Under the pieces are notes generated by a model that ran no database searches, had not been told where the DNA came from, and worked only from the letters and a program-made list of their open reading frames with translations. Below, in pieces: positions 1,559-57,848 of a stretch of 64,000 bases of DNA. Numbering within the stretch: position 1 is the first letter of the stretch; every line of letters begins with the position of its first letter. The position numbers were made by a program, and so were the translations under genes. The stretch is from Candidatus Binatia bacterium (GTDB lineage Bacteria > Desulfobacterota > Binatia > HRBIN30): the NCBI GenBank assembly GCA_038245295.1, contig JBBRSP010000015.1:55603-119602 (forward strand), read 5' to 3'.

Positions 1559-3075
1559 TAGCGTGCCTGCTGCACCTTCTGGCCGCTGTTGCTCTTCAGC
1601 GTCACGATGATGCGGAAATCGACCTTGCCGTCTTGCGCCGACTTGATGTCGCGCACCTGAACCTCATCGAAGTATTTCGCCGCCAGGATGGCCTCGCGGA
1701 TCGCGTTTGGCGTTTCCAACGTGTCGGTGCGCGCCTTCATCTTGATGTCTTCGGTGTCCATCACGTACTCGTCGACCTCGAGCCGTAGGCTATCGGGTAT
1801 CGCCGTGCTCAAGGTGCGTAGGGCATCGATGGCCGTCGTGCCGCTCGGCGGCGCGACGCTGCGCAGCAGCTTCAGTCGTTTTTCGGCGGAGGTAATTTCA
1901 TCCTGCATCTGGCGGCGTTCGTCATTGACGCGTTTGATGTCGGGCAACGTCGCGGTAAACACCTTTCGGATTTCGCGGTTCACCAGCTCCAGACGGTTGG
2001 ACACCAACTGGTAACGCATGAAAGCGCTGGTAATGAACAGCGTCAGTGCCAGAACTCCAAGGCCGCCGGTGAACCACAGCTTTCGTCGCACTTCCTCGGC
2101 GCCGCGATGATACGCAAACTCGCCTTGGCGGAAGTTGAGCCCAAGAGTGTCCGGATTATTCACTTCACGCAGCGCCAGCCCCAGGGGCCCGACAAACGGC
2201 GCCATCTCGGCCCGTAGCTCGGCCGAGATCGTCTTCATCGGCGCCTGCTCGAGGCGACGCACCACCAACCCGAGCCCGTCGTGCAGTTGTTGCCCGAGGG
2301 CAGCGAAATGTGGCCCGTCGCCGGCGATGATGCACGGCATGTCGTCATCCAGGGGCGCTCCGTTGAGCGCCATCAGCGTCCAACGAATGTCGCGTACGAG
2401 ATCGACGATCTGATCGGCGTGTACGGTGTCGCTGCCGTTGTGTGCGACCGCCGCTTCCGGATCCGAACCATTCTTATGCGCCAGGGGCACAATGGTGCGC
2501 ACACCGACAAGTTGTCGATTGCGGTACAGGGCGACCTCGGTGTGGCCTGGTGTGCCGCCCAGATAAACAAACGTCTCCGGGCAATCGGGCCCCAGGAGCT
2601 GTAGGACATTGAGCGCCGCAACCGGGGCAAGATCGATAACCTTGGGGTCGAGCCCCGCCTCGGTCATCGTCGCCAGCAACTTCTCCAGATGCCCGCGTTG
2701 CACCATCGCGGCAAGCACCGAGCTGCCGGACTTATCGCGATGTAAGACGTGGTAGCTGACAATGCCTTCGTCGAGGCCGAACGGCACCTGGGTCTCGAGC
2801 TCGAATGGGACGGTTTGATCGAGGCGTTTACGATCTCGGAACGGCAGGAAGAAGGTACGCAGGGTGACCTGATCACCCGGCAGGGCGGTCAACACAACCG
2901 ACGATCCAAGCTGGTTCTTGTCAATGAACGTGCGCAATTGGTCGCCCAGAGCGATGGCATGGTCACGCGGCTCGCGGAAAAAGCCCAAGAGCTTGTAATC
3001 GCGGTAAGAAGTCTCGAGCAGCGCCGCCTTTAGCTCAGCCGGCTCGATCTCAAGCGCAAGGACTCGTTGAGGCAT
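1558..3075 (-). CDS. gspL: Type II secretion system protein L (PilM-like cytoplasmic plus PilN-like periplasmic domains)
   Basis: 505 aa; 'VLALEI', 'VPFELETQVPF', 'LNFRQGEF' before the TM; operon position. Confidence 0.85.
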   Translation of the reverse strand: MPQRVLALEIEPAELKAALLETSYRDYKLLGFFREPRDHAIALGDQLRTFIDKNQLGSSVVLTALPGDQVTLRTFFLPFRDRKRLDQTVPFELETQVPFGLDEGIVSYHVLHRDKSGSSVLAAMVQRGHLEKLLATMTEAGLDPKVIDLAPVAALNVLQLLGPDCPETFVYLGGTPGHTEVALYRNRQLVGVRTIVPLAHKNGSDPEAAVAHNGSDTVHADQIVDLVRDIRWTLMALNGAPLDDDMPCIIAGDGPHFAALGQQLHDGLGLVVRRLEQAPMKTISAELRAEMAPFVGPLGLALREVNNPDTLGLNFRQGEFAYHRGAEEVRRKLWFTGGLGVLALTLFITSAFMRYQLVSNRLELVNREIRKVFTATLPDIKRVNDERRQMQDEITSAEKRLKLLRSVAPPSGTTAIDALRTLSTAIPDSLRLEVDEYVMDTEDIKMKARTDTLETPNAIREAILAAKYFDEVQVRDIKSAQDGKVDFRIIVTLKSNSGQKVQQAR

Positions 3076-3096
3076 ACGGTTCGCGTAACTCCGCTT

Positions 3097-4281
3097 CTAC
3101 TCTAACTCTTCGGAGCTGCCGTCAGTAGCAGCTTCAACCTCAGGGCGAAACAGGGCCGCGCCACCTTCCTTGAGCCAGTTGATACGACTGATACGCCATT
3201 GCGGTGGGCTACCGGCAGGTCGGGCAACGGGTGCCGGGAAGCGCCCGACGAGCATCTCGGCAGAACGCGCCACGCCGCCGCGACCGGTCACCGGATCAAC
3301 ATTCACAATCGCGCTGGCGCGGATGCGGTAGTACTTGCTGACTAATGCCAGCCCTCCGGCCGGAGGCTTCTTGGTTCCTGCCGCGCTGGAGCCTGAGCCA
3401 CCGGCGGTGGGCAAGGTCTTCTGCGGCGCCGCCTCGCGCGCGGAGATGTAGCTGTCGATATCCGCATCACCGTCAAACCAGGCGGAGAGAAGTTCCGGCG
3501 GTGCGGTATTGGCGTTGACACTGCGCTGGAAGATCGCGCCGGTTGTTGGCAGCGCCGTCAAGACACGGCGCAAGCGCCGCAGCTCGGCGGTTGTAATCCC
3601 ACCCGGCAATCGGGTCAGATCGTCCAGAGACAAGAAATTGTAGGCGTCGATCTTCTGAATTTGGGTTCCCGGTGAAACCGAGGGCGAGGGTCCCGGCGAC
3701 GGCACTCCAGCCGTCGCCCCGTCCGGCCAGACGATAGTGCATTTGGCGATCCAGTAGTCGCGGATCGCTTCAATGCGGTCCTCGCTAATGCCGCGCGACT
3801 GCATGAGGTTGCCCAGCACATCCGTCCATTGTTCATTCAACTGACCGGGCTTGGCCGGATCGCGTTTCGTTTTCATGGCAGCGCATTGCAGGGCGTTTTG
3901 CGGCCGCGTCATGTTGATATTGAGCTTGCCGCCCTCGTCGAAGATTTCGACGCGCAGACGCATGTTCGGTGGCAAGACGATCTGACTGTTCGTCTCATCG
4001 AGACGGCACGACTCGCCGCGACGCGCAACTTGCGGACACCATTCTTCGGCGAATGAATCGACCGTCGGATCAATATCCTTCAACAGAAACGCCTCGCCCA
4101 GAGCGATGCCGGAGCGGGCCATCAACGAAGCCTGTAACCCGTGCAGGGAGTTGCGCGTCATGCGCGTATCCACCTCGGCGGTGAAGAAGAACTCCATGAC
4201 GGTGACGGTCAGCAGAGCGGTGATGAGAAGCGCTATGATCAGCTCCACACCGCGTTCATTTTTCATCGGCGTGCTCATCAC
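3097..4281 (-). CDS. gspK: Minor pseudopilin GspK
   Basis: 'NERG|VELII' hydrophobic N-terminus, 'DEGGKLNIN', 'VNANTAPPELL', 'SKYYRIRA' motifs; ATGA overlap with gspJ. Confidence 0.88.
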   Translation of the reverse strand: MMSTPMKNERGVELIIALLITALLTVTVMEFFFTAEVDTRMTRNSLHGLQASLMARSGIALGEAFLLKDIDPTVDSFAEEWCPQVARRGESCRLDETNSQIVLPPNMRLRVEIFDEGGKLNINMTRPQNALQCAAMKTKRDPAKPGQLNEQWTDVLGNLMQSRGISEDRIEAIRDYWIAKCTIVWPDGATAGVPSPGPSPSVSPGTQIQKIDAYNFLSLDDLTRLPGGITTAELRRLRRVLTALPTTGAIFQRSVNANTAPPELLSAWFDGDADIDSYISAREAAPQKTLPTAGGSGSSAAGTKKPPAGGLALVSKYYRIRASAIVNVDPVTGRGGVARSAEMLVGRFPAPVARPAGSPPQWRISRINWLKEGGAALFRPEVEAATDGSSEELE

Positions 4282-5081
4282 TGCACCGGCGTTGGTGTTT
4301 GCGGCGGCTCGGAGAGCGGCAGGTCGACGCGCGTGCTGAAGTCATGCAGGCCGCCGTTGCTGTCGGCTAGAAAAATGGTGATCTCGACAATCCCAGGGAG
4401 CCCCTTCACGAGTTTGCCTGGTTGCACATCGGTTGTGTCCCAGGAATTGACGAAACCACCAGTTTCAGGATCGAGGTAGCGCAACCGCAGGGCGGCCACT
4501 TCATCGAGCAGGTAGGCGTGCAAATCTTCCTGCGCCGTCGTTCCATCCCCAGCCCCGCTGCTGCCGGAGTCGTCGACCACCGTACCGTCGACGCCGGGTG
4601 TGACGAGACTTTCCGATCGCAGCAAGGCAAACACGTTGTTGCGGTCCTTTACCGGATCAAGTTGATAGATCACCTTGGCGCGCCCGCCGGTTCGATGTGT
4701 GCCGCTGAGGTCGCGTCGCACGTCCATAAAGAAGAGAACGGCGTCGTTCGGGGATTGGCCTTGCCCGGGCGCGCCGACAAAGTAGACTCCACCGCCCGCT
4801 TTGGGTGGCAGGGCCCGTTCCAGATCATCAGCCATCTGCAAAACCGCTTCGCGGCCGGCGGCGTAAAGGTCGGCGTGTTCTTCGGCGCGGTTTTTATCCT
4901 TCAGCGTGCGTGTCATCACCGAATACACCGTGGTCAGCACGATGCTGAGAATCGCTACGGCGACCAGCACCTCGAGGAGGGTGAAGCCACGCTGTGTGCT
5001 CTCAGGCCGTCGCGCCGCGGACAAAAAACACCACCTCGCAGGCAGACGGATTGCGGGGATCGAAGACGATTCGCAAGACAA
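4278..5081 (-). CDS. gspJ: Minor pseudopilin GspJ (true start probably downstream, e.g. TTG at 5024)
   Basis: Prepilin site 'QRG|FTLLE'; C-terminal 'W...LPGIVEITI'; operon position. Confidence 0.85.
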   Translation of the reverse strand: MSCESSSIPAIRLPARWCFLSAARRPESTQRGFTLLEVLVAVAILSIVLTTVYSVMTRTLKDKNRAEEHADLYAAGREAVLQMADDLERALPPKAGGGVYFVGAPGQGQSPNDAVLFFMDVRRDLSGTHRTGGRAKVIYQLDPVKDRNNVFALLRSESLVTPGVDGTVVDDSGSSGAGDGTTAQEDLHAYLLDEVAALRLRYLDPETGGFVNSWDTTDVQPGKLVKGLPGIVEITIFLADSNGGLHDFSTRVDLPLSEPPQTPTPVQ

Positions 5082-5391
5082 CCTCGCGCATATCTTCGAG
5101 TCCCGTGGACATCACCTGAGTCTCGTACGAAAAACCCGGAAAACCATCGATCGCCCCCGACTCATCGCCAAGAGCTTGCACTCCCTGCGACAGAACCCGG
5201 TACTGAATCTCGCTCGACTTCTCGCGCGCGAACAACGTCGCCAGGGTCAGATTCTGGTTCGTGGCAATGTATTTGATGTTACGCGCCTGAGCCCCGAGCA
5301 GCGTCACGAACGCGATGGCGATCACCGCCAGGGCGATGAGCACTTCGAGAAGCGTGAAGCCGCGATCGCGGCGATTCAAAGGGGGGCGCAT
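5002..5391 (-). CDS. gspI: Minor pseudopilin GspI
   Basis: 'DRG|FTLLEVLIALAV'; short pilin; ATG at 5391 preferred over ORF-track start 5436. Confidence 0.82.
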   Translation of the reverse strand: MRPPLNRRDRGFTLLEVLIALAVIAIAFVTLLGAQARNIKYIATNQNLTLATLFAREKSSEIQYRVLSQGVQALGDESGAIDGFPGFSYETQVMSTGLEDMREVVLRIVFDPRNPSACEVVFFVRGATA

Positions 5392-5442
5392 CTGTCTCGA
5401 ATTTCCTTGTTGGGCGGCCGGCGGCGTAAAGAGCACCAGCGG

Positions 5443-6015
5443 TCAACCACCGTAGGCTACATCATGGTATCCGGGCTGATTCTTCAACTTGCTGCTGCCG
5501 AGGCTGACCCAAAGCGTAACCGCCTCACGCGGGCTGGCCAGGTGAATGACGGTCGGGTCAACCGTGCCGTCGGGGTAGAAGACGGTATAGATCTGTCCCT
5601 GCGCCACTTTCCCTACCGATAGCGGCAGGCTCACATCAACAAGGCGGATCTGACCGTTCAGCTTGGTACCGCTGGCCAACGAGCCAATATCGGCGGCAAA
5701 CTTGGCGAGATCGACGTTTCCCGCACCCGTATCATGCGGGCTGACCCAGTAGCGTTGTTGGTCAAAATCGTAATTCAGCCGGTATCCGACGCCGCCCAGG
5801 ACGGCTTCACTCCGCAACAGTTTGAACGCCAACTGAAGCCGATGTGATTGTGCACCCAGCTCAGCCCGACCCGGATCACGAAGCTTTGGCACCACCATCG
5901 CCAGCACCACGCCGACGATCAGAATCACCAAGGAGATCTCAATAAGGGTAAAGCCCCGCTGATCGCTTCGCCTCCTGGATGTGGTTGGGTTAGGCGCGGT
6001 TGTCGATATCGCCAT
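5443..6015 (-). CDS. gspH: Minor pseudopilin GspH
   Basis: 'QRG|FTLIE', 'FYPDGT' motif; ATG at 6015 follows purine-rich GAAGGGAAGA. Confidence 0.82.
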   Translation of the reverse strand: MAISTTAPNPTTSRRRSDQRGFTLIEISLVILIVGVVLAMVVPKLRDPGRAELGAQSHRLQLAFKLLRSEAVLGGVGYRLNYDFDQQRYWVSPHDTGAGNVDLAKFAADIGSLASGTKLNGQIRLVDVSLPLSVGKVAQGQIYTVFYPDGTVDPTVIHLASPREAVTLWVSLGSSKLKNQPGYHDVAYGG

Positions 6016-6403
6016 TCTTCCCTTCGCCGCCCTCCTGGCCGTCGGCGCCATAGGATTTGATCACAACCTCGGAACCGTCGCTGAAGTAGGCGTAAGGATT
6101 GCCCCAGGGATCGACCGGCACCTTGTCGAGATAACCGTCTGGGTTGAAGTTACGGGCATTCGCCGGGCGTTGGACGAGGGCGTTGATGCCATCGGCGGTG
6201 CTTGGGTAAAAGCCGTTATCCAGCTTGAACATGTTGAGGGCTTGCTCGATCGCCTTGACGTCGGCGCCGGCTTTGACGCGGCGCGCGTCGTCGGTTCGGC
6301 CGATGATCTTCGGCGCCACCAGGGTCACCAGGAGGCCGAGGATGAACACCACCACCATGATCTCAATCAACGTAAATCCTGCAGTGCTGCGTAGACGTCG
6401 CAC
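5990..6403 (-). CDS. gspG: Major pseudopilin GspG
   Basis: 'AG|FTLIEIMVV', 'ALNMFKLDNGFYP', 'PVDPWGNPY', 'SYGADGQEGGEGKNGDI'; GTG at 6403 with AAGGAG RBS. Confidence 0.95.
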   Translation of the reverse strand: MRRLRSTAGFTLIEIMVVVFILGLLVTLVAPKIIGRTDDARRVKAGADVKAIEQALNMFKLDNGFYPSTADGINALVQRPANARNFNPDGYLDKVPVDPWGNPYAYFSDGSEVVIKSYGADGQEGGEGKNGDIDNRA

Positions 6404-6480
6404 GGTAGACTCCTTCTCAATTTCGCTGCAATACGGCGACGGTACCACCGGCATATCGTCAATTCAATTCGCTCACCCGG

Positions 6481-7719
6481 CTACTTGACGAGGTCATTCA
6501 TGCTCATGATCGGCAACAGGATGGCCATGACGATGAACAACACAACACCACCGCCGAACAGGATCATCACCGGCTCGAGGATGCTCGTCAGGCCGGTAAC
6601 CGACGACTCGACCTCGTTGTCATAGGCATCGGCAGCCTTGCTGAGCATCTGCTCGAGCTCGCCGCTGCGTTCGCCGACGGCAATCATATGAATGATCATA
6701 GACGGGAACAGGCCGCTCTTCTTCAATGGCGGAGCAATACTCTGCCCCTCCCGAATGGAGGCGCGGGCATCTTCGATGGCGTTGCTGAGCACCATGTTGC
6801 CGACGACGTTCTTCACAATGTCGAGCGCCGTCAGCAGGTTGATGCCACTATTGAGCAAGGTCGACAACGTGCGCGCAAAGCGCGCCAGCGCCACCTTCTT
6901 GATCAACTTTCCAAAGTAGGGAATTCCCAAAACGTAGCGATCGAAGCGCAGACGGCCAGCATCGGTCCGCCGGCTCATCTGGATGCCGACCACGGTTCCG
7001 ACGATGATCATGATGATGAGCCACCAATAATCCTGGGTAAAATCGCTGATGACCAGGAGAATACGCGTCATCATCGGCAGATTGGCCTGATTTTCGGCGA
7101 AGATCTTGGTGATCTTGGGCACGACGTAGGCCAACAACGACAACAGGATGCCGGTGCCGGCGATGGCCATCAGCGACGGATACGTCATCGCCGACCGCAC
7201 TTTGTTGCGCAGCGCCGCCGCCTTCTCGGTGTAGTCGGCAAGACGCATGAGCACTAGATCGAGCGCGCCGCTGGCTTCACCGGCACGCACCATGTTTACG
7301 TAGAGATCGCTGAAAACGCGCGGGTGCTCTTTCAGAGCATCGGCAAAGGCGGCGCCTTCGCGCACTTGTTCGCGGATCTGCGACAGCACGCGTTTTGTGC
7401 GCGCCGATTCCACTTGATCGATCAGCGCCGAGACACATTCGACGAGCGGCAGGCCGGCTCCCACCAGGGTGGCGAGCTGGCGCGTGAGCAACGCCAACTC
7501 GTTCGGCTGCATGGTGTCGAAGTAACCGCCGAAGCTGAAACTCGATTCGCCGGCCGCCTCCGCCTTGCTGACCGCGCGGCCCTCCTGCTCGACCACATCG
7601 GTGGGAAAGACGTTGTCGCGACGCAGCTTTTGACGCGCCGCCTTGGGGTTCTCGGCATCGACGATGCCGCTCACCGCGCGGCCGGTCGTGCTCAATCCTC
7701 TATAGGCGTATACCGGCAT
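6481..7719 (-). CDS. gspF: T2SS inner-membrane platform protein F
   Basis: 'TRQLATLVGAGLPL', 'MVRAGEASG', 'MIAVGERSG', 'LEPVMI'. Confidence 0.95.
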   Translation of the reverse strand: MPVYAYRGLSTTGRAVSGIVDAENPKAARQKLRRDNVFPTDVVEQEGRAVSKAEAAGESSFSFGGYFDTMQPNELALLTRQLATLVGAGLPLVECVSALIDQVESARTKRVLSQIREQVREGAAFADALKEHPRVFSDLYVNMVRAGEASGALDLVLMRLADYTEKAAALRNKVRSAMTYPSLMAIAGTGILLSLLAYVVPKITKIFAENQANLPMMTRILLVISDFTQDYWWLIIMIIVGTVVGIQMSRRTDAGRLRFDRYVLGIPYFGKLIKKVALARFARTLSTLLNSGINLLTALDIVKNVVGNMVLSNAIEDARASIREGQSIAPPLKKSGLFPSMIIHMIAVGERSGELEQMLSKAADAYDNEVESSVTGLTSILEPVMILFGGGVVLFIVMAILLPIMSMNDLVK

Positions 7720-7803
7720 GAAACCGTCTCACTGACGCGGTCGAACCGCCTCTATTCAGCCCAGCCGCAAATGGCGCCGATGTCGGTGCGCGGGCGCATG
7801 GCG

Positions 7804-9516
7804 TTAGAAGATCACGTCCTGCGTGACACGCAGGATCTCTTCGACGCTGGTCTGTCCATCGAGGACCTTATCGGCGCCGTCTTCGCGCAGCGTCATCATG
7901 CCTTGAGCCGTGGCTGCCTTGCGAATCGCCGAGGAGTCTGAGTTCTTCATGACCAACTGGCGCACTTCGTCGTCCACGACGAGTAATTCGTGAATACCGG
8001 AACGACCGCGGTAGCCCTTGCTCTTGCACTGGATGCAACCGCCACCCGGCTTGTAGAGTGGACGTCCGGCGAGGCGTTGTGGCGTGATACCGATCTCTTC
8101 GATTTCTTCCCGGGTCGGATCGTAGGGCTCGCGACAATTGGGACACAAGCGACGCACCAGGCGCTGCGCCATGATGGCAATCACCGACGACGAAACGAGG
8201 AATGGCTCGATTCCCATGTCGAGAAGACGCGTCATGGCGCCGAACGAATCATTCGTATGCAGCGTCGAGAAGACCAGGTGACCCGTCAGCGCCGCTTGAA
8301 TGGCGATTTCAGCGGTCTCACCGTCGCGGATTTCGCCGACCATGATGACATCGGGATCCTGGCGAAGAATCGAGCGCAGGCCGCTGGCAAACGTCAGCTC
8401 GATCTTCGGATTCACCTGGATCTGGCCAATGCCGTGCAGCTGATACTCGATCGGATCTTCGATGGTGATGATGTTCTTGTCGACGGTGTTGATCTTCGAC
8501 AGGGCGGCGTAGAGCGTGGTCGTCTTACCACTGCCGGTGGGGCCGGTCACAAGCACGATGCCGTGGCTCTGCTTGATCAGCTTGTGCATGCTGTCGAGCT
8601 TACTGCCGCGCAGCCCGAGCTCTTCGAGTTGCAACACGGTGGTCGCTTTGTCGAGCAGACGCATGACGACGCGCTCGCCGTACGCCGTCGGCACGATCGA
8701 CACGCGGATGTCGATGTCTTTGCCGGCGAGACGTACGCGAATGCGGCCGTCTTGCGGCAGCCGTTTCTCGGCGATGTTCAACCCGGCCATGATCTTGACG
8801 CGCGAGATGATGATCGGTTGGAAACGCTTCGGCGGCGACAAGATATCGTAGAGGATGCCGTCGATGCGGAACCGCACCAGCAGGTCGCGCTCGAAGGGCT
8901 CGATGTGAATGTCGCTGGCGCGATCCTTCGCTGCTTGGAACAGTAGCTGGTTTACCAGGCGGATGATCGGCGCTTCGTCGTCGGCGTCGAGCAGGTCGCG
9001 TGGCTCGTCGAGGACGTTGATCTCGAGATCGAGCCGTTCGGTATCCAGATCATCCATCAATTCGGATGCCGAACCGGCCGAAGCCAGGTCGTAGATCCGA
9101 TTGATCGCATCGACGACGATCGGAGCGGGCGCGACGAAGATGCGCAACGCTTTGCCGAGCAACAGCCGGACGTCGTCGAGAGCTCCGATGTTGGCCGGAT
9201 CGGCCGTCGCGACAACGACCGTATCGCCATCCAACCCCACCGGGAGGAGCAGACACTTCTTGGCGAAGTTGATCGGCAACTTGCTGATCAGGTCGATGTT
9301 CGTCATTTCGTCCGGCAGACGATCGCGAAATGGCAACCCGTAATGATCGGCAAGCGCGTGCGCCCATGTCGTGCTGTCGATAGCGCCCATCTCCTGCAGC
9401 ACATCGCCAAGGCCCTTGCCTTCGCGCTGCCGCTCACGCGCGCGCTCGAGGATTTCCTCGGAAATCTGCCCCTGTTGGAGCAGGAATCCTTCGAGAGTTT
9501 TTGCAGCGACCGCCAT
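7804..9516 (-). CDS. gspE: T2SS ATPase E
   Basis: 'ASDIHIEP', Walker A GPTGSGKT, 'LRQDPDVIMVGEIRD', Zn motif CPNC...CIQC. Confidence 0.96.
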   Translation of the reverse strand: MAVAAKTLEGFLLQQGQISEEILERARERQREGKGLGDVLQEMGAIDSTTWAHALADHYGLPFRDRLPDEMTNIDLISKLPINFAKKCLLLPVGLDGDTVVVATADPANIGALDDVRLLLGKALRIFVAPAPIVVDAINRIYDLASAGSASELMDDLDTERLDLEINVLDEPRDLLDADDEAPIIRLVNQLLFQAAKDRASDIHIEPFERDLLVRFRIDGILYDILSPPKRFQPIIISRVKIMAGLNIAEKRLPQDGRIRVRLAGKDIDIRVSIVPTAYGERVVMRLLDKATTVLQLEELGLRGSKLDSMHKLIKQSHGIVLVTGPTGSGKTTTLYAALSKINTVDKNIITIEDPIEYQLHGIGQIQVNPKIELTFASGLRSILRQDPDVIMVGEIRDGETAEIAIQAALTGHLVFSTLHTNDSFGAMTRLLDMGIEPFLVSSSVIAIMAQRLVRRLCPNCREPYDPTREEIEEIGITPQRLAGRPLYKPGGGCIQCKSKGYRGRSGIHELLVVDDEVRQLVMKNSDSSAIRKAATAQGMMTLREDGADKVLDGQTSVEEILRVTQDVIF

Positions 9517-9518
9517 GG

Positions 9519-12473
9519 TTACCCGGCGCGCGTCCAGTTCTGGACATTAAGCGTACCCGGTTCGACGGGCTCACGCCAATGCAGGAATGTGGCCGGATCG
9601 GAGCTCACCTTCATGCCCTCGGGATACGAAGCGAAGGCTTCCTGCGGCGACGCGAACACCTCGAGGCACACCAAGTCTGCCGAGTATTCGCCGGCGCTGA
9701 AGCGATACGTCTCGCCCTTGCGGAACAAGCTGGTTAGCGGCGAGTTCACCGGCACCGCCAGAGCAATCATGCCGTTGCTTCCGGCGAGGCTCTGCGGTGG
9801 CGTACCGGACTCGTGTACGCTGGCGAACAGGATGTAACGGTTGTTACCCTCGACCACCGACGTTGCCCCTTGCGGAATCGCCTCCGGCGCCGGTCGCGGC
9901 ACCGGCGCCTGGATGGATGGAATCGGGCCAACCGCTCCCGACGGCGGCTCACCTTCCATCCGCGCTGTCTTGTCGGGCCCGGCGGACGGCAAGCGCTCTT
10001 CCTGGGGCGTGTCGCTGCGCGGTTTGTGGACCTCGATGTGCGAGCGCCGGCCCGACTTGTTGGCTTCCGGCTCGGCCGGCTGCTCGGTCGACGGGCGTAC
10101 TTCCCACGACGGGGCATAAAGCTGTTCCCACAGCGGCCCATGCTGTCCAACCTCTTCGTACGGCCGCTGCACAATACGCTCGCGTTCACCCACCGCCACA
10201 TTGCGCTGATCGCGCTCGTTGCGAATGATGTGCGGCGTCAAGAAGATCAGCAGATTGGTTTTACGATTGCGGACGGTCTCGTAACGGAAAAAATTGCCGA
10301 TGAACGGAATCTCGCTGATGTACGGAACACCCGCGATGTTCTTCGCCGCCGCATCGAAGATGATGCCGCCGATGACGACCGTCTGCTCGTCACGTGTAAC
10401 CACCGATGTGCTGGCTGAGCGGATGGTTGTTGTCGGACCCAGTTGCGGGTCGTTCGAAATCACGTCCGACACTTCCTGGAAGATATCCAGCCGGACCTGT
10501 CCACCCTCGGAAATCTGCGGGGTGATACGCAGCGTGATGCCGACGTCGCGCCGTTCGATCGTCGCGAAGGTGTTCGACAGGTTTACTTCGGTCGTCGACC
10601 GGCTGGCGATGAACGGAACGTTCTGGCCGGAGACAATCTCGGCCTGCTGATTGTCCATCGTCAGGACGGTCGGCGCCGACAGAATGTTTGCATCGGCGCG
10701 ACTCTGCAGGGCACGCAAGATGACTTGTTGAGCCGGCACGGCGACGCCGCCGACGGTAACCGTTTGTGAGCTCGCCGCCGCCAGCACCAGACCGGACAGG
10801 TTGGTGGGGTTGAGCAGCTGATTGATCGCACCGTTCAGGTTGGTGCGACCGACACCCACACCGTTCGGCAAACCCGTGGCGCCCTGCAACTCGATACCGA
10901 GCTCGCGTGTCGCGTCAACCGCCACTTCGGCGATGATCGCTTCGACGTATACCTGGCGGCGACGCACATCGAGTTTGTCGATGACTTCGCGGAGCGTCTC
11001 GAAATCCTGAGGCGACGCGTTGATGATCAGAGCGTTTGTCGAGGGATCGGCACTGAGACGCACCTGCCCTTCGAATTCGCTGTTCTGCTGTCCGGGCAGC
11101 CCGCCTTGACCACCTTGCCCGCCACCGGTGCGGCGGCCGCTGATCGAACCTGGCTGACCGAAGCCGCCGATTTGGTTGCCAAAGCCGCCACCGACGCCGC
11201 CGCCAAAGCCGCCGACGCCACCGCCGAAACCCCCGACCTGGCCGAAGCCGCCGCCGACGCCGCCGAAACCGCCGCCGCCAAATCCGCCGATTCCGCCGAT
11301 TCCGCCGCCGCCGCCGCCGAGACCACCCCGGCTGGAGCCGCCGAGACCGCCAGACGAACGAGCGCTGCCGTTACGAATTCCGCCCAGGCCGCCGAAGCCC
11401 CCCGCGCCGAGTCCGACGCCGCCGACACCACCACCAACGGTCGAACCTAAGACGGGAAGCAACTCGAAGGCGTTGGCGTACTTGAGGTAGTAAACATGGA
11501 TTCGGCCGGTACCCAACGGCAACGGCACATCGAGGCGCGAGATGAGGTCTTTGATCTTCTTCGCTTCGGTCTTGCCCGCAACGATGATCAACGAATTGGT
11601 ACGCTCGTCGGGGATGATCTTAAACGCGTGCTCCGGCGTCGCGCCCCCAGAAATCGCACCCGAGGTGCCCGAGGCTCCGGTGCGTGGGGCGGTTCCGCGT
11701 CGAAGGCGTGCGTCCGGCGCGGCGCCCGGTTGTGTAGCGGGTGCCCCCGCACCTCCACCACCCGAGCTCGAACCAGGATCCTCTAAAAGCTGTTGCAGCA
11801 ACGAGGCGATGTCACCGGCAAAGGCGTAGTTGAGGCGCACCAACTCGATGTCTTGTTCCTGACCTTCGATATCGAGTTGATTGAGAATCTTCGAGACGCG
11901 GTCGGTCTGCGCCGCGGTATCGATCATGATGAGCGTGTTGGTCGGTGGGTAGGCCGCCAGGAGTCCATCAGGGGAGATGAACTGTTGCAGCACGCTGACC
12001 ATGTTGTTTGAGTCGACATGCTTCAGGTGCACCAAACGGGTGATGTACTCGTCGCGCGGCGTAACAATCGTACCGGGCAGAACGGTATCGATGGTGTTTG
12101 TCTTGGCGTCTTTCGTCGCGACGATCTTGATGATCGTACCCGATTGAACGGTGGTGAAGCCCTTTACCTGCAGGACCGATTGAAAGACGAGGTAGGCCTC
12201 GTCCTTGCTGATCTTCCCGGGAGAGATGATGGTGATCTTGCCGCGGACCTTCTCGTCGACGATGAAATTGCGTTTCGTAATGTCACTGATGAGTTTTACG
12301 AGGACGGCGATATCGACGTCCTGGAAATTCATCGAGATGCCTTCTTCCTCCAGTGCCAGCGGGGCCGGAGGCGGCGCATCTTGCGCCAAAACAATCGCCG
12401 CAGCGGACCACAGGAGTCCGCCGGAGAGAACTGCGGCGACCAGGCATCGTTGAGCTGCTTTCCGCATTACCAC
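9519..12473 (-). CDS. gspD: T2SS secretin D with Gly-rich insertion and long C-terminal extension
   Basis: N0 'MNFQDVDI', N-domain repeats 'LNYAFA'/'LKYANA', 'RRQVYVEAIIAEV', 'DVGITLRITPQI', 'LLIFLTPHII'. Confidence 0.95.
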   Translation of the reverse strand: MVMRKAAQRCLVAAVLSGGLLWSAAAIVLAQDAPPPAPLALEEEGISMNFQDVDIAVLVKLISDITKRNFIVDEKVRGKITIISPGKISKDEAYLVFQSVLQVKGFTTVQSGTIIKIVATKDAKTNTIDTVLPGTIVTPRDEYITRLVHLKHVDSNNMVSVLQQFISPDGLLAAYPPTNTLIMIDTAAQTDRVSKILNQLDIEGQEQDIELVRLNYAFAGDIASLLQQLLEDPGSSSGGGGAGAPATQPGAAPDARLRRGTAPRTGASGTSGAISGGATPEHAFKIIPDERTNSLIIVAGKTEAKKIKDLISRLDVPLPLGTGRIHVYYLKYANAFELLPVLGSTVGGGVGGVGLGAGGFGGLGGIRNGSARSSGGLGGSSRGGLGGGGGGIGGIGGFGGGGFGGVGGGFGQVGGFGGGVGGFGGGVGGGFGNQIGGFGQPGSISGRRTGGGQGGQGGLPGQQNSEFEGQVRLSADPSTNALIINASPQDFETLREVIDKLDVRRRQVYVEAIIAEVAVDATRELGIELQGATGLPNGVGVGRTNLNGAINQLLNPTNLSGLVLAAASSQTVTVGGVAVPAQQVILRALQSRADANILSAPTVLTMDNQQAEIVSGQNVPFIASRSTTEVNLSNTFATIERRDVGITLRITPQISEGGQVRLDIFQEVSDVISNDPQLGPTTTIRSASTSVVTRDEQTVVIGGIIFDAAAKNIAGVPYISEIPFIGNFFRYETVRNRKTNLLIFLTPHIIRNERDQRNVAVGERERIVQRPYEEVGQHGPLWEQLYAPSWEVRPSTEQPAEPEANKSGRRSHIEVHKPRSDTPQEERLPSAGPDKTARMEGEPPSGAVGPIPSIQAPVPRPAPEAIPQGATSVVEGNNRYILFASVHESGTPPQSLAGSNGMIALAVPVNSPLTSLFRKGETYRFSAGEYSADLVCLEVFASPQEAFASYPEGMKVSSDPATFLHWREPVEPGTLNVQNWTRAG
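11100..11440 (-). repeat. Low-complexity Gly-rich (GGFGG/GGVGG) coding segment inside gspD
   Basis: Repeated ccgccg-type units on the + strand; about 110 aa of GG[FVIL]GG. Confidence 0.9.
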
Positions 12474-12496
12474 CCCTCGCTTCCAACCTTCATCCG

Positions 12497-13447
12497 TTAA
12501 CGAACCTGGTACGACAGATCCAAGGGCGTCTTGTTGCGCGTGCCCTTGACTGTGAGAGTGTCGACATTGCGCAATTCCTGCAACAACGCCAATGCCTTGC
12601 TGGGATCGCTAATCTTGTTGCCGTTGATTTCTTCAATAATGTCGCCGTTGCGCAGACCGATCTGGTCGAAGATGCTGTTCTGGCGAATCGCGAACAAACG
12701 GAACCCCGTCGACTCGCCGCCGTCGAAGTGCGGCACGGCGCGGATCTGGGTGAACAGCTGTGCCATGTTGTCGAGCTGCGAATCCACTTCCGAGCGATCA
12801 ATCTTGTATTGGTTCTCGCTCAACTGCTGAACGTGTGGATTCGGCGAAGCACCGCCGGCCGTCTGGTTCTGATCGCCTGGCACAGTCGCCCCCGGAGGCG
12901 GCGGAGGTGCTCCGGGCGGTAAGGCGGCAACGGCGGTCGACGGCCGCGCCCCACCGGCGCCGCCTGGGCCACCGGGGCCACCCGCTTGCTGCAACTCGAT
13001 ATACTTCTCACGACCGGCCTGATCGAGGATAACCTTCTCCCACTCGATAGCCTTGACCACCGCGACGGCCGAAACGGTATCACCGATCCGGTAGACTTCT
13101 GATTTATGAGTCGCCAGATCCTCGATGATGCAGCGCGAATCGGCGCGATCGAGGGTCACACCCCAAAGTTTTAGATTGAGCTCTTTCTCCGGCGGTGGCG
13201 GAGGCGCCACCGGGGCTTGCTCTTTGTCGGGATTCAGAATGTCCCGGGTGACGATTTTGTCGACGTAAAAGGGCTCGGGATGCTTCTCGGCTGCCGCCAT
13301 GGGCGGTGGCGGTGGCTTGATGCGCACATCCGGGGGCGGAATGAGTCTGGAGGCAACAGCCGTACTGACCGTGGAGGCGCCCCAGTACGCCACCAACGCC
13401 AGCAGCACTAGGTTGACCCAGACGAGGTGACGCAAGGAGAACTTCAT
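12497..13447 (-). CDS. gspC: T2SS protein C (HR plus PDZ)
   Basis: N-terminal TM, 'LKLWGV' HR domain, PDZ 'GFRLFAIRQNSIFDQIGLRNGDIIEEING'. Confidence 0.92.
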   Translation of the reverse strand: MKFSLRHLVWVNLVLLALVAYWGASTVSTAVASRLIPPPDVRIKPPPPPMAAAEKHPEPFYVDKIVTRDILNPDKEQAPVAPPPPPEKELNLKLWGVTLDRADSRCIIEDLATHKSEVYRIGDTVSAVAVVKAIEWEKVILDQAGREKYIELQQAGGPGGPGGAGGARPSTAVAALPPGAPPPPPGATVPGDQNQTAGGASPNPHVQQLSENQYKIDRSEVDSQLDNMAQLFTQIRAVPHFDGGESTGFRLFAIRQNSIFDQIGLRNGDIIEEINGNKISDPSKALALLQELRNVDTLTVKGTRNKTPLDLSYQVR

Positions 13448-35313: not shown

Positions 35314-36603
35314 TTACGAGCAGCTGCCGAGAGCTTTATTGACGGCGCTGACGATCTCGTTGACGGTGATCTCACCGTTGCCGTCGACATCGCCGGCCGC
35401 GCACGTCGAGGCCGGGGCCGAGCCGAGAGCGATGTTCACCATCGCGATGATCTCGTTGACGGTGACTTCGTTGCTGCCGTCGCAATCGCCGGCGCAGCTT
35501 GGCGGTATCACCGGGTTATCCTTCGCCACCAGGTTGACCGTCACGCCCAGCGAGCTGATGCCCATGACGTTGATGCCGGCCAGCGCAAACGCCGACACGA
35601 GAGCCGAGCCGCCCGGATTGCCGAGCTCCACCTGACTGCAGGTGAACGGTGCACCGGTGACGGTTGTCGGTCCGATCTCGCCGCCGTCGGGCAAGTTGGT
35701 GATCGTCGCGGTCGCCATGCCGGTAACCGCCGGCAACGTCGCCGCGGCGCCGAAGTCTGAAGCGTCGTCAGCGGTGCAGAATTTGCCGTCCGGTCCATAC
35801 GCGGCGCCGGTCCCGGTGCAGCCACCGACGGCCACGTTGACGCCGATCGTCGTCAGAATAGAGGCCGAGCCGGCAGGCCCGCTGCCGTTGATCGTCACAA
35901 CCGGAGGCAACGCGGTGCCGCTATCGCCGCCCGCATCCAGCGTGTAGGTCAGATTGTTGCCGTCGATGCCGGTGCAACCGATGTTGCCCGACGCCGTGTT
36001 GCCCGGTCCGTGCACGAAGGTACACGGTTTCTTGCCCGCACAGAGCGCCTCGTTCGCCGTGCAGTCGGTCGACAACGTCGTGCCGTCCGCCTCGAAGAAC
36101 GTGCCGCCACAGGTCTTTGCCGTCGCGCCGTGCACACATCCGCACGCCAAGCTCAACACCGGCACGGCCGGGAAGTCGATGCCCGAGGCTTTGACAACCA
36201 CCGGGATCTTGCCGTCGCGCTGCTTGCCGATTGTCATGACCAGCTTGCCGCTGAGCGGCAGCGGCAGTTGCAGGAAGCCGGCGTCGGCGACCACGCCGCT
36301 CGTCCCGGGGCGGATCGACAATCCCTCAGAAACGCCGGGGACCAGCTGGATGTTTACATCGCGCTCCGTCGTGCAGTTCGCTGCGCAGCCGTCGCCGCCG
36401 GCAGTTTTGCATTCACCACCGGGGCACGCCGCACTCGAAGTACACGCGGTGCCAGCATTGGAGCTACCGATACAGTAGCCGCCATTGTCGCATTCCTCAG
36501 GCGCCTCGGTGACTCCGTCGCCACACGTCACAGCCCGCGCCACTTGCACCGAGACGAGAGCCGAACAAAGGCTCACCGCCACGGCAATTGCCATCTTACG
36601 CAT
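35314..36603 (-). CDS. Secreted Cys-rich protein with Myxococcus-type Cys repeat and C-terminal dockerin-like module
   Basis: Signal peptide; 'CGDGVTEAPEECDNG...GDGCAANC'; C-terminal 'CAGDCDGSNEVTVNE...GDVDGNGEITVNE...ALGSC'; AAGGAGG RBS. Confidence 0.85.
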   Translation of the reverse strand: MRKMAIAVAVSLCSALVSVQVARAVTCGDGVTEAPEECDNGGYCIGSSNAGTACTSSAACPGGECKTAGGDGCAANCTTERDVNIQLVPGVSEGLSIRPGTSGVVADAGFLQLPLPLSGKLVMTIGKQRDGKIPVVVKASGIDFPAVPVLSLACGCVHGATAKTCGGTFFEADGTTLSTDCTANEALCAGKKPCTFVHGPGNTASGNIGCTGIDGNNLTYTLDAGGDSGTALPPVVTINGSGPAGSASILTTIGVNVAVGGCTGTGAAYGPDGKFCTADDASDFGAAATLPAVTGMATATITNLPDGGEIGPTTVTGAPFTCSQVELGNPGGSALVSAFALAGINVMGISSLGVTVNLVAKDNPVIPPSCAGDCDGSNEVTVNEIIAMVNIALGSAPASTCAAGDVDGNGEITVNEIVSAVNKALGSCS

Positions 36604-51613: not shown

Positions 51614-52525
51614 CTACCCCCGACCGGAGGACGAATGCGTATCGGTCGAACGCAGCGTCGCACTGCCTGTAACGGCGCGTTCACCGGACGCGTGCTCGAT
51701 GACGAGATCAACGACGACGCGCTCACCGTCGGGCTGCGAATGGTGTTCCACGATGGCACCACGCAGGACGAGATGATCGCCGCTGATCGTCGGCTGACGA
51801 AACGTGCTGCCGAGGCGTTCGAGATGAAAGCCGCGTAACTCGCGCCACAAGAACTGTTCGAGAAACGCCGTCAGCATGGGACCCGGCACGACGATGCCGC
51901 GAAAACCCAGAGAACGGGCGTATGAAACGTCGGAGAACAGATTTTCCCGCATGTCGCCCGTGCCAATGTAGCGCGCCACCTCCGACTCGGTGGCGCTGGG
52001 GCGTTCCCAAGGACCGATCTCGTCACCCAGCTCGACCGCGACGCGTCGCGAGCCCGACGCGGCAGCCTCATTGGCGAGCGGCAGCAACTCACCGCGATCC
52101 GGTGCCGCCGGAGCAACCCCTGGCGCGCGCACGATCTGACGCTCGGCGATGCGCACGGCGACAACTCCGGCGTCATCGCAGATCTCGGCGGTGCGTTCGA
52201 CAACGGTAAGCGACCCACTGCGCCCGCTCTTTTCGAAAATGTCGTTGATCCAGCCCCGGCTGCGATAGATACGGCCGATCTCGATTGGCTGATAGAGCTC
52301 GATATCGTGGCCACCGTAGACCCCGAAGGTCCCCGGCGGCAGCGTGATCTCCGGCGCCATGCCGCGCCGCATTATCAGGCAATACGTCGGCGGCGCCGGG
52401 GAGCCAACTCTCGGATCACCGACAGCGGCGCGATACGCCGCTACTAGCGCGGCGGTGACCTCGACGGTGCCGAGGTCGACGGCGCGTCCAAGCAGACCGT
52501 GATCGAACCAGGCAGGCGAGTTCAC
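51614..52525 (-). CDS. Fused MaoC-type double-hotdog dehydratase
   Basis: 'APPTY', 'EKSGRSGSL', 'SYARSLGFRGIVVPGPM'; GTG 52525 overlaps the mbnH stop (GTGA). Confidence 0.75.
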   Translation of the reverse strand: MNSPAWFDHGLLGRAVDLGTVEVTAALVAAYRAAVGDPRVGSPAPPTYCLIMRRGMAPEITLPPGTFGVYGGHDIELYQPIEIGRIYRSRGWINDIFEKSGRSGSLTVVERTAEICDDAGVVAVRIAERQIVRAPGVAPAAPDRGELLPLANEAAASGSRRVAVELGDEIGPWERPSATESEVARYIGTGDMRENLFSDVSYARSLGFRGIVVPGPMLTAFLEQFLWRELRGFHLERLGSTFRQPTISGDHLVLRGAIVEHHSQPDGERVVVDLVIEHASGERAVTGSATLRSTDTHSSSGRG

Positions 52526-53853
52526 GGCGTCGGTGTCGGCGGCGGCGGACACGCCCCAAGGGCCCGGTTCACGGCAAGCAACAACTCATCGATGGTAACA
52601 TCGCCATCGCCATTCGCGTCGGCGCCAACGCAGTCGGCCAGCGTCGCTTCACCCAGAGCGATGCGAACGGCATTGATGATCTCATCGACCGTGACGTCCG
52701 CATCGCCGTTGCAATTACCGGCGCACTGCCCCGGCGCAAACGGATCTCCGAACGCCGGATTGGTGAGGAACTCGTCGTCGGTGAGGGTGGCGAGGAAGTC
52801 GAGCAGGTTCTGGCGTTCGTCGTTGCTGAGGGTGAAGCCGCGCACAAAGCCGCTCTTGAAGGGGCTGGCTCGTCCGTCGCCGGCATAGGGTCCCTCGGTG
52901 ATATTGTGCCCGCCGGCCGCATAGTGATCGATGACATCATCGATCGTCGCCAACGAACCGTCGTGCATATACGGCGCCGTCTTCATGATGTTGCGTAACG
53001 TCGGCGCCTTGAAGCTACCCATGTCGCTCGGAATGTTGGTGATCGAAAAGATACCCTGGTTGTCGGGCGGATAGGCGCCGGTGCCGCCGATATTGAACAG
53101 CCCGTTGTTCTGAAACGAGGTCTCGTCGAACTCCTTCCCTTCGAAGGTCACGGAAACGGCAAAGGCGAACGGGCCGTGACAGTGAAAGCACTCGAGACGC
53201 TCGGAGAAAAACAACCGACCACCGAGAAAGGCCGAGTCGGAGATGGCGTGATCGTCGAGCCCCTGCGTGTAGCGATCATAGGGCGCGTTGCCGGAGATCA
53301 GAGTGCGGACGAAGGTCGTCAACGCGGCGACCAGATTACCCAGGTTGATGGGATCGGCCCCACCCGGGAACGCATCGGCGAAGAGGCGCACGTAGCGCGG
53401 GTCGGCGCGTAGGCGATCGAGTAGCTCATCTTCGCGCCCGGCCAGACCCAGCTCCACAGGATGTTCTCCGAACATTGGTAACAGCACCTGCTTCTCGAGC
53501 GTCGTCAGCAAGGGATTGGCCCACGCCAAGCTGGCGCCGTAGGCGACGTTGGCCAGACTCATCGAGCCACGCGGGTGAATCTCGCCGGTCGAACCGACAC
53601 CGTGCGGTAAACCGTCGGTAAACGCCAGATCCTGGCGATGGCACGAAGCGCACGACTGCGTCAGGTTGCCCGACATCCGCGTGTCGTAAAACAGGAACCG
53701 ACCGAGCGTGACCTTTTCATTACTGGGCGGGTTCTCGGTCGAGACCTTCGGTGTCGGAAATCCTGGGGGAAGGTTCCAGTTGAACGGCTTGGCGTGCGCC
53801 ACCGACGCGAGCAGGATCGCCGCAAACAGGAAGCTGGCTTTGAGGCAACGCAT
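52522..53853 (-). CDS. mbnH: MbnH-type di-heme enzyme (MauG/CcP superfamily) with C-terminal dockerin-like module
   Basis: Signal peptide, 'LGRFLFYDTRMS', CASCH and CFHCH, 'FKAPTLRN...APYMHDGS', 'GPYAGDG'; adjacent to mbnP. Confidence 0.88.
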   Translation of the reverse strand: MRCLKASFLFAAILLASVAHAKPFNWNLPPGFPTPKVSTENPPSNEKVTLGRFLFYDTRMSGNLTQSCASCHRQDLAFTDGLPHGVGSTGEIHPRGSMSLANVAYGASLAWANPLLTTLEKQVLLPMFGEHPVELGLAGREDELLDRLRADPRYVRLFADAFPGGADPINLGNLVAALTTFVRTLISGNAPYDRYTQGLDDHAISDSAFLGGRLFFSERLECFHCHGPFAFAVSVTFEGKEFDETSFQNNGLFNIGGTGAYPPDNQGIFSITNIPSDMGSFKAPTLRNIMKTAPYMHDGSLATIDDVIDHYAAGGHNITEGPYAGDGRASPFKSGFVRGFTLSNDERQNLLDFLATLTDDEFLTNPAFGDPFAPGQCAGNCNGDADVTVDEIINAVRIALGEATLADCVGADANGDGDVTIDELLLAVNRALGACPPPPTPTP

Positions 53854-53859
53854 CAGGAC

Positions 53860-54816
53860 CTAGTCCACCCGGAAGAACTTCTGCAGCGCCGGCACCGGCT
53901 GACCGTTTTCGAAGTGAACGCCAAGGTTGCGCAGGATCGGCGCACAGTCGCTATCATTCGGATCCGACATGCAGCCCGGCGGCGTGTCGGGTTGGTTGCT
54001 GTTGAGATCGGAGTCGGCCAGCAGCGCCGCGAGATCGGCGACGATCACCTGCGTGCTCGGATCGAAATCGTCGAGCCAGATCTCGGCACGGTTCGGGCGC
54101 GCACAGCCGGCCACGACGTTCGGACGCGAGTAGGTGCAACCGGTGCTGCCGAGGTGGACGCGCAAGTTGTCGAAGGCTGTGTCGACGCGCAGGAATTTGT
54201 AGCCGTCCTGCCAGCTCCAGAACAATCCGCTCAAGTTGAGCGGTGACGGAGCAATCGCCTGATCGTTGTGATTGCGCGCGAACGGCACACCCAGGGTGAA
54301 ACGCACACCGCGATAGGTCCCGGGCGCCACCGATCCGTGGACCTCCGAGTTCGTTGGTGCCGTGCCGGCGGTGCACGGGCGCACCTTGTTCTCGAAGTCG
54401 ATGAGGGCGATGTCATCGACCTGCCAGCGGTGATCCTGATCGAGACGCACGCTGACTTCGCGATAGTCGGAGGTCACCAGACGGAAGTTCGATACGTAGA
54501 AACGGAAGTCGGAAGGCACCAATGTCGCCTGAGTCGTGCCGATGTTGTCGTAGGCTTGGCCGCAAGCGAACTCTTGATCACCGACCATGCCTTTGAAGCG
54601 GATCGTCAACGGCTGAAAAGCGCAGTCGCTCACGCCATTGTTCACGGCGACCACCAGCTCGTCGATGGTCACGGCGCCATCGCTGTTACCGTCGCCGACA
54701 CACTGCCCATAGGCATCGAAGGCCAGACTCGATGGCTGCGCGGCTGCGATGCCGCAGCCGACAACCACCAGAACTGCCGTCGCCATTGATCGAAGGACTT
54801 GGTTGAAGATGTTCAT
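53860..54816 (-). CDS. mbnP: MbnP-family copper-binding protein with N-terminal half dockerin-like module
   Basis: 'DFRFYVSN', 'LIDFEN', 'FTLGVPF', WxW 'FWSWQDGYKF', 'HLGSTGC', 'CARPNR', 'GCMS'. Confidence 0.88.
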   Translation of the reverse strand: MNIFNQVLRSMATAVLVVVGCGIAAAQPSSLAFDAYGQCVGDGNSDGAVTIDELVVAVNNGVSDCAFQPLTIRFKGMVGDQEFACGQAYDNIGTTQATLVPSDFRFYVSNFRLVTSDYREVSVRLDQDHRWQVDDIALIDFENKVRPCTAGTAPTNSEVHGSVAPGTYRGVRFTLGVPFARNHNDQAIAPSPLNLSGLFWSWQDGYKFLRVDTAFDNLRVHLGSTGCTYSRPNVVAGCARPNRAEIWLDDFDPSTQVIVADLAALLADSDLNSNQPDTPPGCMSDPNDSDCAPILRNLGVHFENGQPVPALQKFFRVD

Positions 54817-54839: not shown

Positions 54840-54893
54840 GCGACACGTATGCCAACCCACCGAGCACAAACATACTGGCTCAATTATTTGAGC
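54840..54893 (-). promoter_or_regulatory. Candidate sigma54-like promoter and upstream palindrome for mbnPH
   Basis: Minus-strand TTGGCATACGTGTCGC (54855-54840) has correct GG/GC spacing; GCTCAA-TTAT-TTGAGC at 54878-54893. Confidence 0.35.
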
Positions 54894-57720: not shown

Positions 57721-57848
57721 GGGTCCGGGATGTTAGCTGCGCGAGGGCAGGCAACTCAAGCGACCGACGTACGGAGGATGGCGGCGGCGAAAGCCGACCG
57801 CCACAGGTGTTGGCAAGCACAGCGCCAGCGTCTACCTATGCGGCCTCC

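Follow-up and report, generated by a model that had tools for sequence, protein, structure and literature searches.

The MbnP-MbnH pair and its modules

The stretch analyzed here (the window) comprises 64,000 nucleotides of the genome of a Candidatus Binatia bacterium (assembly GCA_038245295.1, contig JBBRSP010000015.1). It contains the adjacent genes mbnH and mbnP, which encode relatives of the di-heme enzyme MbnH and the copper-binding protein MbnP of Methylosinus trichosporium. Both products carry a short dockerin-like module, and this module, its other carriers and its possible partners are the subject of this report. The features of the locus are as follows:

52522..53853, minus strand: mbnH, 443 residues, di-heme MbnH-family enzyme with a signal-like N-terminus, a C-terminal module and a Pro/Thr tail
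53638..53652, minus strand: heme-binding motif 1 of MbnH, CASCH (residue 68), invariant in 120 homologs
53176..53190, minus strand: heme-binding motif 2 of MbnH, CFHCH (residue 222), invariant in 120 homologs
52549..52725, minus strand: two-repeat, four-Cys module of MbnH (residues 377-435, 59 residues), dockerin fold in the predicted structure
53860..54816, minus strand: mbnP, MbnP-family copper-binding protein with a signal-like N-terminus; likely start ATG 54816
54622..54702, minus strand: single-repeat (27-residue) dockerin-like module of MbnP, one calcium (Ca) loop and helix between two Cys
54211..54219, minus strand: WxW motif of MbnP (WSW; FWSW in context), aligned with WNW of PDB 7L6G

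The genes and both modules lie where a preliminary description, made from the sequence alone, had placed them; FWSW is present, and MbnH has the expected two CxxCH motifs. Both proteins exceed the cut-offs of their family hidden Markov models (HMMs): MbnH scores 479.3 bits with TIGR04039 (cut-off 362.85), and MbnP 280.4 bits with TIGR04052 (cut-off 140). MbnP also matches PF20243 (E 2.7e-43). The solved M. trichosporium relatives are 6E1C for MbnH (E 1.3e-104) and 7L6G for MbnP (E 2e-34). Residues W111 and Y311 of MbnH, which we take to be the inter-heme Trp and the distal Tyr of MauG-like enzymes, show no variation in the 120 homologs and are identical in the alignment with 6E1C. An alternative in-frame ATG for mbnP lies upstream at 54873. 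A lipobox regular expression flags MbnP as a lipoprotein, but this candidate was rejected: the Cys concerned is not kept in homologs, and a cleaved signal peptide is therefore more likely.

In the M. trichosporium pair, H2O2-driven bis-Fe(IV) chemistry is known to oxidize a Trp of MbnP, and the resulting copper site is reviewed as consisting of His, Met, water and kynurenine (PMC11951088; this source and PMC11980579, PMC12270676, PMC6461901, PMC8542988, PMC3621798 and PMC13729199 were available in part, and statements drawn from them hold for those parts). The His of our MbnP aligns with that of 7L6G. The residue two positions before WxW, which would be the copper-ligand Met, is Leu here and in 10 of 40 homologs; 7L6G and the other 30 (one of these from an unpublished genome, G177) have Met.

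Deletion of mbnP or mbnH in a methanotroph leaves copper-bound methanobactin in the medium (PMC13729199). In our genome, which is 96.6% complete, the best match to mbnB reaches 70.5 bits against a cut-off of 325, and a methanobactin link was rejected on this far lower score. The genome has seven matches to TonB-dependent receptors, none of them on the contig of the pair. Both results agree with the earlier observation that no receptor or methanobactin genes flank mbnPH. The copper monooxygenase family PF02461, considered as a copper sink, gave no match, but the control was also silent, so that its absence is not shown.

Predicted fold of the MbnH module

The module of MbnH was modeled on 105 aligned copies (pLDDT 93). 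When the model is submitted to Foldseek, the best-ranked rows are dockerins (probability up to 1.00, TM about 0.67, best E 0.022). VIA-align against 48,161 entries likewise places dockerins in all of the top 13 rows, with Z from 6.7 to 4.4 and the next row at 3.0; the best row has an rmsd of 3.1 A over 60 residues, and by the tool's own warning a Z below 8 is weak when taken alone. A feature search of the Atlas returns dockerin clusters at 0.92, which is a lead only, and the module profile, run against the sequences of solved structures, gives weak EF-hand matches and one dockerin match (best E 0.001).

The Ca-loop pattern is kept in both repeats. Loop positions 10-12, 17 and 21 have the same residues in 89-99% of the 105 copies, and position 18 is kept in only 48-64%. 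The four Cys are present in 91, 100, 100 and 89% of the copies, and the module is probably stapled by disulfides. Pattern and predicted fold thus agree with the preliminary description of the module as dockerin-like, and together they suggest a divergent dockerin-fold class distinct from PF00404 (Dockerin_1). The latter is listed for just 2 of 117 scanned carriers at E 1e-4; that the module mostly escapes the Pfam dockerin model may be why it has been overlooked.

The single-repeat module of MbnP

Among MbnP homologs there are 25 distinct copies of the single-repeat module (one from G177). All are 27 residues long and keep the outer two Cys, and none has the inner pair (0/25). Judged from these copies, the half-module is a conserved class of its own. 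Because MbnP-type copies keep the outer pair without the inner one, we infer that the full module has an outer and an inner disulfide. Four half-modules are found in this genome, the other carriers being two Lcl-domain proteins and a YHYH protein. A precedent is available from Ruminococcus flavefaciens, where single-repeat dockerins bind cohesin, two per cohesin, and are termed the only known functional natural truncations in the available part of PMC12270676.

Carriers of the module in the genome

A module profile seeded from 74 regular-expression hits was used to search the whole 6.6-Mb genome. It finds 124 copies in 123 open reading frames (ORFs) and none in reversed ORFs; 66 copies are C-terminal, 37 N-terminal and 21 internal. 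Among 116 carriers with 150 residues or more, 90 have a signal-like start by a crude rule, compared with 409 of 1207 control ORFs, and none has an internal membrane-like stretch.

A Pfam scan covered 117 of the 123 carriers and gave 50 of them a family beyond EF-hand, dockerin and cohesin. The families include beta-propellers, FG-GAP repeats, proteases (M10, M23, trypsin, S8/S53), an esterase and beta-helices, together with two multiheme cytochromes with MtrC/F-like domains, cytochrome P460, glucose/sorbosone dehydrogenase, one GH10 and one protein with a weak CcP/MauG-like domain. ABC solute-binding proteins and periplasmic chaperone families are absent from the 117. With one GH10 among the 117, plant-wall-degrading enzymes do not dominate the carriers, and none of the three GH5 matches in the genome is tagged; membership in a cellulosome was rejected on this client content. 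One further carrier lies in the window itself:

35314..36603, minus strand: third module carrier, 429 residues; module at about 35317-35496, at the ORF end; body without known family

Cohesins, putative scaffolds and anchors

The preliminary description had supposed that the tagged proteins might assemble on a scaffold, and at the genomic level this guess is borne out, since cohesin-like proteins with surface-sorting tails and a sortase are found. Pfam gives 16 cohesin matches in the genome, with a PF00963 score of 24.8 bits for the cohesin against a cut-off of 24.1. An iterated profile of one cohesin class, whose seed rows come partly from G177, detects 27 domains in 18 ORFs and none in the reversed control. 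Nine ORFs contain both a cohesin and a module and are adaptor-like, and many single cohesin-like domains sit within tagged proteins themselves.

Two proteins have several cohesins in a row (contigs of this genome are numbered with C). The first, at C12:33298-35220, has three cohesins and a sorting tail. Its first cohesin was modeled with a pLDDT of 96.6, and Foldseek matches it to the type I cohesin 6kgd_A (E 7.7e-11, TM 0.79); all rows listed for it are cohesins. The run of two tagged genes with this gene immediately downstream is found again in three families of the order. The second, at C31:68228-72187, has five cohesins and a lipobox-like signal at its start; the two repeats that follow the cohesins resemble CHRD domains.

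MYXO-CTERM-like tails or lipoprotein signals of the multi-cohesin proteins are their predicted anchors. Five of seven scaffold tails pass the cut-off of the MYXO-CTERM model TIGR03901; an eighth tail, from the C21 locus, has the look of MYXO-CTERM and no HMM match. The myxosortase core (NF040914) is present at 102.1 bits against a cut-off of 100. In Myxococcus, MYXO-CTERM proteins are anchored at the surface through MrtX and a secretion system of type II (T2SS; PMC11980579). An operon for such a system is found in the window and would be the export route for tagged proteins and scaffolds:

54..13447, minus strand: type II secretion (gsp) operon with C, D, E, F, pseudopilins, L and N (GspD 555 bits against a cut-off of 351; other genes by Pfam)

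A cluster of a second cohesin class is located at C21:45912-64208. In one of its ORFs a canonical dockerin accompanies cohesin-like repeats, about six in tandem; another has a dockerin, a cohesin and a MYXO-CTERM-like tail. A cohesin ORF of this class lies at C21:56979-59993.

Taxonomic range within Binatia

A set of 301 genomes sampled from the class was used to survey the range of the system, with 13-21 candidates scored per genome. These tallies include G177; without it the same-order figures read 48/48, and no conclusion depends on it. The module is present in 49/49 genomes of the same order and in 5/251 outside, there at 1-2 matches; in 46 of the 49 all 21 scored candidates have it. The cohesin query matches in 49/49 and 4/251, respectively, and the myxosortase core, at E 1e-15, is found in single copy in 49/49 and in 4/251 (it is over cut-off in 29 of the 301). 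Thus the cohesin and the myxosortase match the order-wide range of the module. Outside the order, module and cohesin occur together in two genomes. From range and synteny we infer that module and cohesin pair as plug and socket.

MbnP-MbnH loci in relatives and the transporter question

MbnP is found in 51 and MbnH in 52 of the 301 genomes (G177 counted), most of them from this order and a single family outside it. Among the best 30 loci of each, MbnP is tagged in 25 of 26 same-order loci (one from G177) and in 0 of 4 outside, and MbnH in 13 of 20 and 0 of 10. The top 120 MbnH homologs are all tagged, and none has a dockerin label from Pfam. The preliminary description had left room for the fusion being already widespread and described; it is indeed widespread in the order, and a description in print was not found.

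In a tree of 50 MbnH cores with the module removed, 20 of 21 tagged proteins share one supported branch (95/90), which has one untagged member; the gain of the MbnH tag therefore probably dates from early in the order. Another branch holds six untagged same-order paralogs, the second MbnH of this genome among them, and untagged MbnP-MbnH paralog pairs occur within the order. The second MbnH (C41:38486-40875) has no MbnP beside it; its neighbors are an unassigned lipoprotein-like ORF before it and, after it, a YHYH-family protein that has a half-module. In relatives, paralogs of this MbnH adjoin MbnP variants with an HxHWxW-type motif. In six same-order genomes mbnP and mbnH are unlinked, and both are still tagged.

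Receptors in relatives were detected with a profile from this genome's own seven, which may miss others. Of 12 same-order stretches of up to 20 kb, 3 have a TonB-dependent receptor upstream of tagged mbnP on the same strand. Read gene by gene, two of these stretches run from the receptor through a TonB-like gene and a small ORF rich in Cys and His to a barrel-like gene; an outer-membrane-barrel-like gene adjoins mbnP in 6 of the 12. In this genome, contig C3 has a homolog 54% identical to the relatives' receptor, with a TonB-like neighbor, and contig C38 has two homologs of the barrel-like gene. Since these are kept, the transporter link is dispersed in this genome rather than demonstrably lost. 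The earlier suggestion that the pair may be co-assembled rather than serve a transporter is accordingly not supported, given the receptor run near tagged mbnP in relatives and the close homolog kept here.

Several observations on these loci can be added (relatives' loci are numbered with L). The small ORF between the TonB-like and barrel-like genes (L244:7762-8283, L250:7440-7997) is rich in Cys, His and Met, has no NCBIfam family (L244 copy) and could be a metal sensor or leader. Four of the seven receptor genes of this genome (on C48, C24, C5 and C25) adjoin a module-carrying gene. In the outside family, MbnP and MbnH form a single polypeptide in 6 of 9 loci (L255:8705-10786; also L221, L222, L225, L228 and L232; 6 genomes). 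The fused 693-residue ORF is over both HMM cut-offs, has a lipoprotein-like signal and offers a simple model for the enzyme-substrate complex; such a fusion fits a need for closeness of enzyme and substrate, met by a different solution. An unnamed domain of about 170 residues is appended to MbnP in one family (L042, L043, L048, L050, L054) and to MbnH in some other genomes (L018, L020). Finally, L022, titled Candidatus Margulisiibacteriota, has a tagged MbnH inside the Binatia branch, and its title and content may disagree.

Interpretation

Taken together, the results lead us to regard MbnP and MbnH, with moderate confidence, as two of about 120 clients of a non-cellulolytic cohesin-dockerin surface display system. 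The feature of interest would then be an order-wide docking system and not a private trait of mbnPH. Clients would leave the cytoplasm by Sec, be matured in the periplasm (hemes, disulfides, Ca), pass the outer membrane through the T2SS and plug into scaffold cohesins, with myxosortase anchoring the scaffolds at the surface. MbnH, with its full module, and MbnP, with its single repeat, would dock as two such clients, and the tag would hold both on the cell. As in the characterized pair, MbnH would turn the Trp of the WxW motif into kynurenine, and MbnP would bind copper at the envelope and would plausibly go on supplying a TonB-dependent receptor.

The preliminary description had seen the shared module as a docking or export tag that might co-assemble enzyme and substrate. 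Both are indeed tagged, but a special link between them by the tag is not supported, because 123 ORFs carry it and both proteins keep it where their genes are unlinked (six relatives). It probably does not pair MbnP with MbnH selectively either, as the predicted recognition residues are common to about 120 clients. A direct and selective joining of the two proteins by their modules, independent of any transporter, would agree with the tagging of both in most same-order loci (MbnP 25/26, MbnH 13/20), with the frequent fusion in one outside family and with the special half-module of MbnP. It is nevertheless very unlikely: besides the 123 ORFs with the same tag, two Lcl-domain proteins and a YHYH protein have the half-module as well, the same order has untagged paralog pairs, and the transporter link persists in relatives.

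A different role for the module itself deserves more weight, although we consider it unlikely. It could be a dockerin-derived, Ca-binding tag that does not bind these cohesins and acts as an export signal, a stabilizer or a binder of lipopolysaccharide, exopolysaccharide or the S-layer, with the cohesin-like domains as spacers. The Glu at loop position 12, the weak EF-hand matches, the excess of 124 modules over 27 cohesin domains of the co-distributed class and the many single cohesin-like domains inside tagged proteins can all be read in this way. Yet a conserved run places sorting-tailed tandem cohesins immediately downstream of tagged genes, module and cohesin share their taxonomic range, and the N-terminal, internal and C-terminal positions of the module (37, 21 and 66) are unlike those of a terminal export signal. 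Docking could also face the periplasm, with clients on lipoprotein-anchored scaffolds and MbnP-MbnH as the usual periplasmic partners of a TonB receptor, merely tethered. The lipobox-like signal of the five-cohesin protein, the typically periplasmic clients (glucose/sorbosone dehydrogenase, cytochrome P460, the CcP/MauG-like domain) and the receptor run around tagged mbnP in 3 of 12 relatives' stretches point in this direction. We think this quite unlikely, because the conserved scaffold has a MYXO-CTERM-like tail, a surface signal in Myxococcus (PMC11980579), other clients are typically extracellular (GH10, S8/S53, M10, trypsin, MtrC/F-like cytochromes), and no ABC solute-binding or periplasmic chaperone family is among the 117 scanned carriers.

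Several results weigh against the surface display system that we favor. Loop position 12 is Glu, which is EF-hand-like, rather than the Asp of classical dockerins; the MbnH module has no match to PF00404 at E 0.1; and the dockerin fold match is statistically modest (Foldseek E 0.022, VIA-align Z < 8) and is that of a predicted model. The crude signal test is failed by 26 of the 116 carriers. The scaffold tail of this genome scores 18.6 against the MYXO-CTERM cut-off of 20, and the five-cohesin protein could face the periplasm. The genome also has a second, canonical dockerin class together with the second cohesin class. Conservation of the expected cohesin binding face, by a crude alternate-residue rule, is 0.56 compared with 0.46 (p 0.055). 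The co-occurrence of module, cohesin and myxosortase in one clade amounts to one event, not 49, and the module and cohesin queries were both derived from this genome. Because Leu replaces Met two residues before WxW, the copper site of this MbnP may differ from the known site. A complex prediction, which covered one of the two cohesin classes, gave 0.08 and 0.05 against a mark of 0.32 for a C12-type cohesin with the MbnH module; with no folded controls, the result counts neither way.

A bolder version of the surface display system is possible but doubtful. It would be an order-wide surface plug-board in which about 120 proteins, including copper-capture proteins, multiheme cytochromes, peroxidase-like enzymes and proteases, are arranged on branched, myxosortase-anchored scaffolds. 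The dockerins would be stapled by disulfides, and the 27-residue half-dockerin of MbnP, closed by a disulfide, would be a natural minimal tag, with two clients per cohesin; a kynurenine copper site at the surface would feed the TonB receptor from outside.

Neighboring genes

Downstream of mbnH, a double hot-dog dehydratase-like gene occupies 51614-52525 (minus strand), and its likely GTG start overlaps the mbnH stop; a gene resembling it also comes after mbnH in one relative (L017). Just upstream of mbnP are PMT_2-like membrane glycosyltransferase genes at 54916-56508 (minus strand) and 57807-61214 (plus strand), one over cut-off and one weak. The long Pro/Thr linkers of many carriers and scaffolds could be glycosylated. 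Heme biosynthesis and cytochrome c assembly genes (14046-19266, plus strand) adjoin the T2SS operon, and a small gene pair at 40980-41740 (plus strand) looks, by eye, like an antitoxin and a PIN-domain toxin.

Significance and comparison with known systems

The established role of cohesin-dockerin assembly lies mainly in the breakdown of polysaccharides by Gram-positive anaerobes, and the exceptions proposed earlier are small and genome-predicted. If the surface display system is real, an order-wide Gram-negative version with redox and metal clients and a myxosortase anchor would widen the known use of this kind of assembly, and MYXO-CTERM sorting would extend beyond the lineages named in the available part of PMC11980579. 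The tag also marks exported proteins of an uncultured group at the sequence level, and the site of MbnP-MbnH action becomes testable with small recombinant domains. For display engineering, the system offers a predicted new cohesin-dockerin pair and a predicted 27-residue tag.

No publication on a Binatia cohesin-dockerin system, on cohesins and dockerins combined with MYXO-CTERM or on a tagged MbnH was found, and subscription literature and supplements could hold a mention. The main text of the Binatota genome paper (PMC8262859) has neither 'dockerin' nor 'cellulosome', a cellulosome survey (PMC11557425) lacks 'Binat', as does a 2025 cellulosome review (PMC12484212), and the available part of a myxosortase preprint (10.1101/2023.06.07.544157) has no such mention.

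The M. trichosporium pair (7L6G, 6E1C) resembles ours in its adjacent genes, two CxxCH motifs, Trp and Tyr, WxW and aligned His. It differs in that here both proteins have dockerin-like modules, no TonB receptor or methanobactin genes are nearby, Leu replaces Met, and mbnP and mbnH are unlinked in several Binatia relatives. The MopE/SACCP and CorA/CorB systems of methanotrophs likewise combine a kynurenine copper protein with a di-heme partner, and MopE in its intact form is associated with the surface, which sets a precedent for a role there (PMC3621798). However, their sequence and fold differ from those of MbnP, and a dockerin tag is not reported in the available part of that paper.

With the type I-III cellulosomes of Clostridium and Ruminococcus, the Binatia system shares a dockerin-fold tag on a large set of proteins (>100 exported proteins here), tandem cohesins, Pro/Thr linkers, adaptor-like proteins, a C-terminal sorting signal and a single-repeat dockerin class; R. 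flavefaciens has more than 200 dockerins, single-repeat ones of group 2 among them (PMC12270676). Binatia, in contrast, are Gram-negative; the anchor would be of the MYXO-CTERM/myxosortase or lipoprotein kind where cellulosomes have SLH or LPXTG, the modules are rich in Cys, and the clients are not cellulases and include heme and copper proteins. Non-cellulolytic versions have been proposed from genomes alone for Planctomycetes and Cloacimonadota (PMC6461901, PMC8542988). The 'planctosome' of Nemodlikiaceae (PMC6461901) and the Candidatus Stygibacter complex (PMC8542988) are similar to ours in combining cohesins and dockerins in uncultured, non-clostridial bacteria and in being genome-predicted only. 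In the parts of these papers that were available, they have a few hydrolase clients and other anchors, whereas the Binatia system would have about 120 diverse clients, an order-wide range and a myxosortase-type anchor. The anchor itself resembles the MYXO-CTERM/myxosortase system of Myxococcota, with the same Cys, hydrophobic helix and Arg-rich tail on the scaffolds, a single-copy myxosortase core and a T2SS. That sorting is described as myxobacteria-specific, in the available part of PMC11980579, and anchors single proteins such as TraA; in Binatia it would anchor a docking scaffold.

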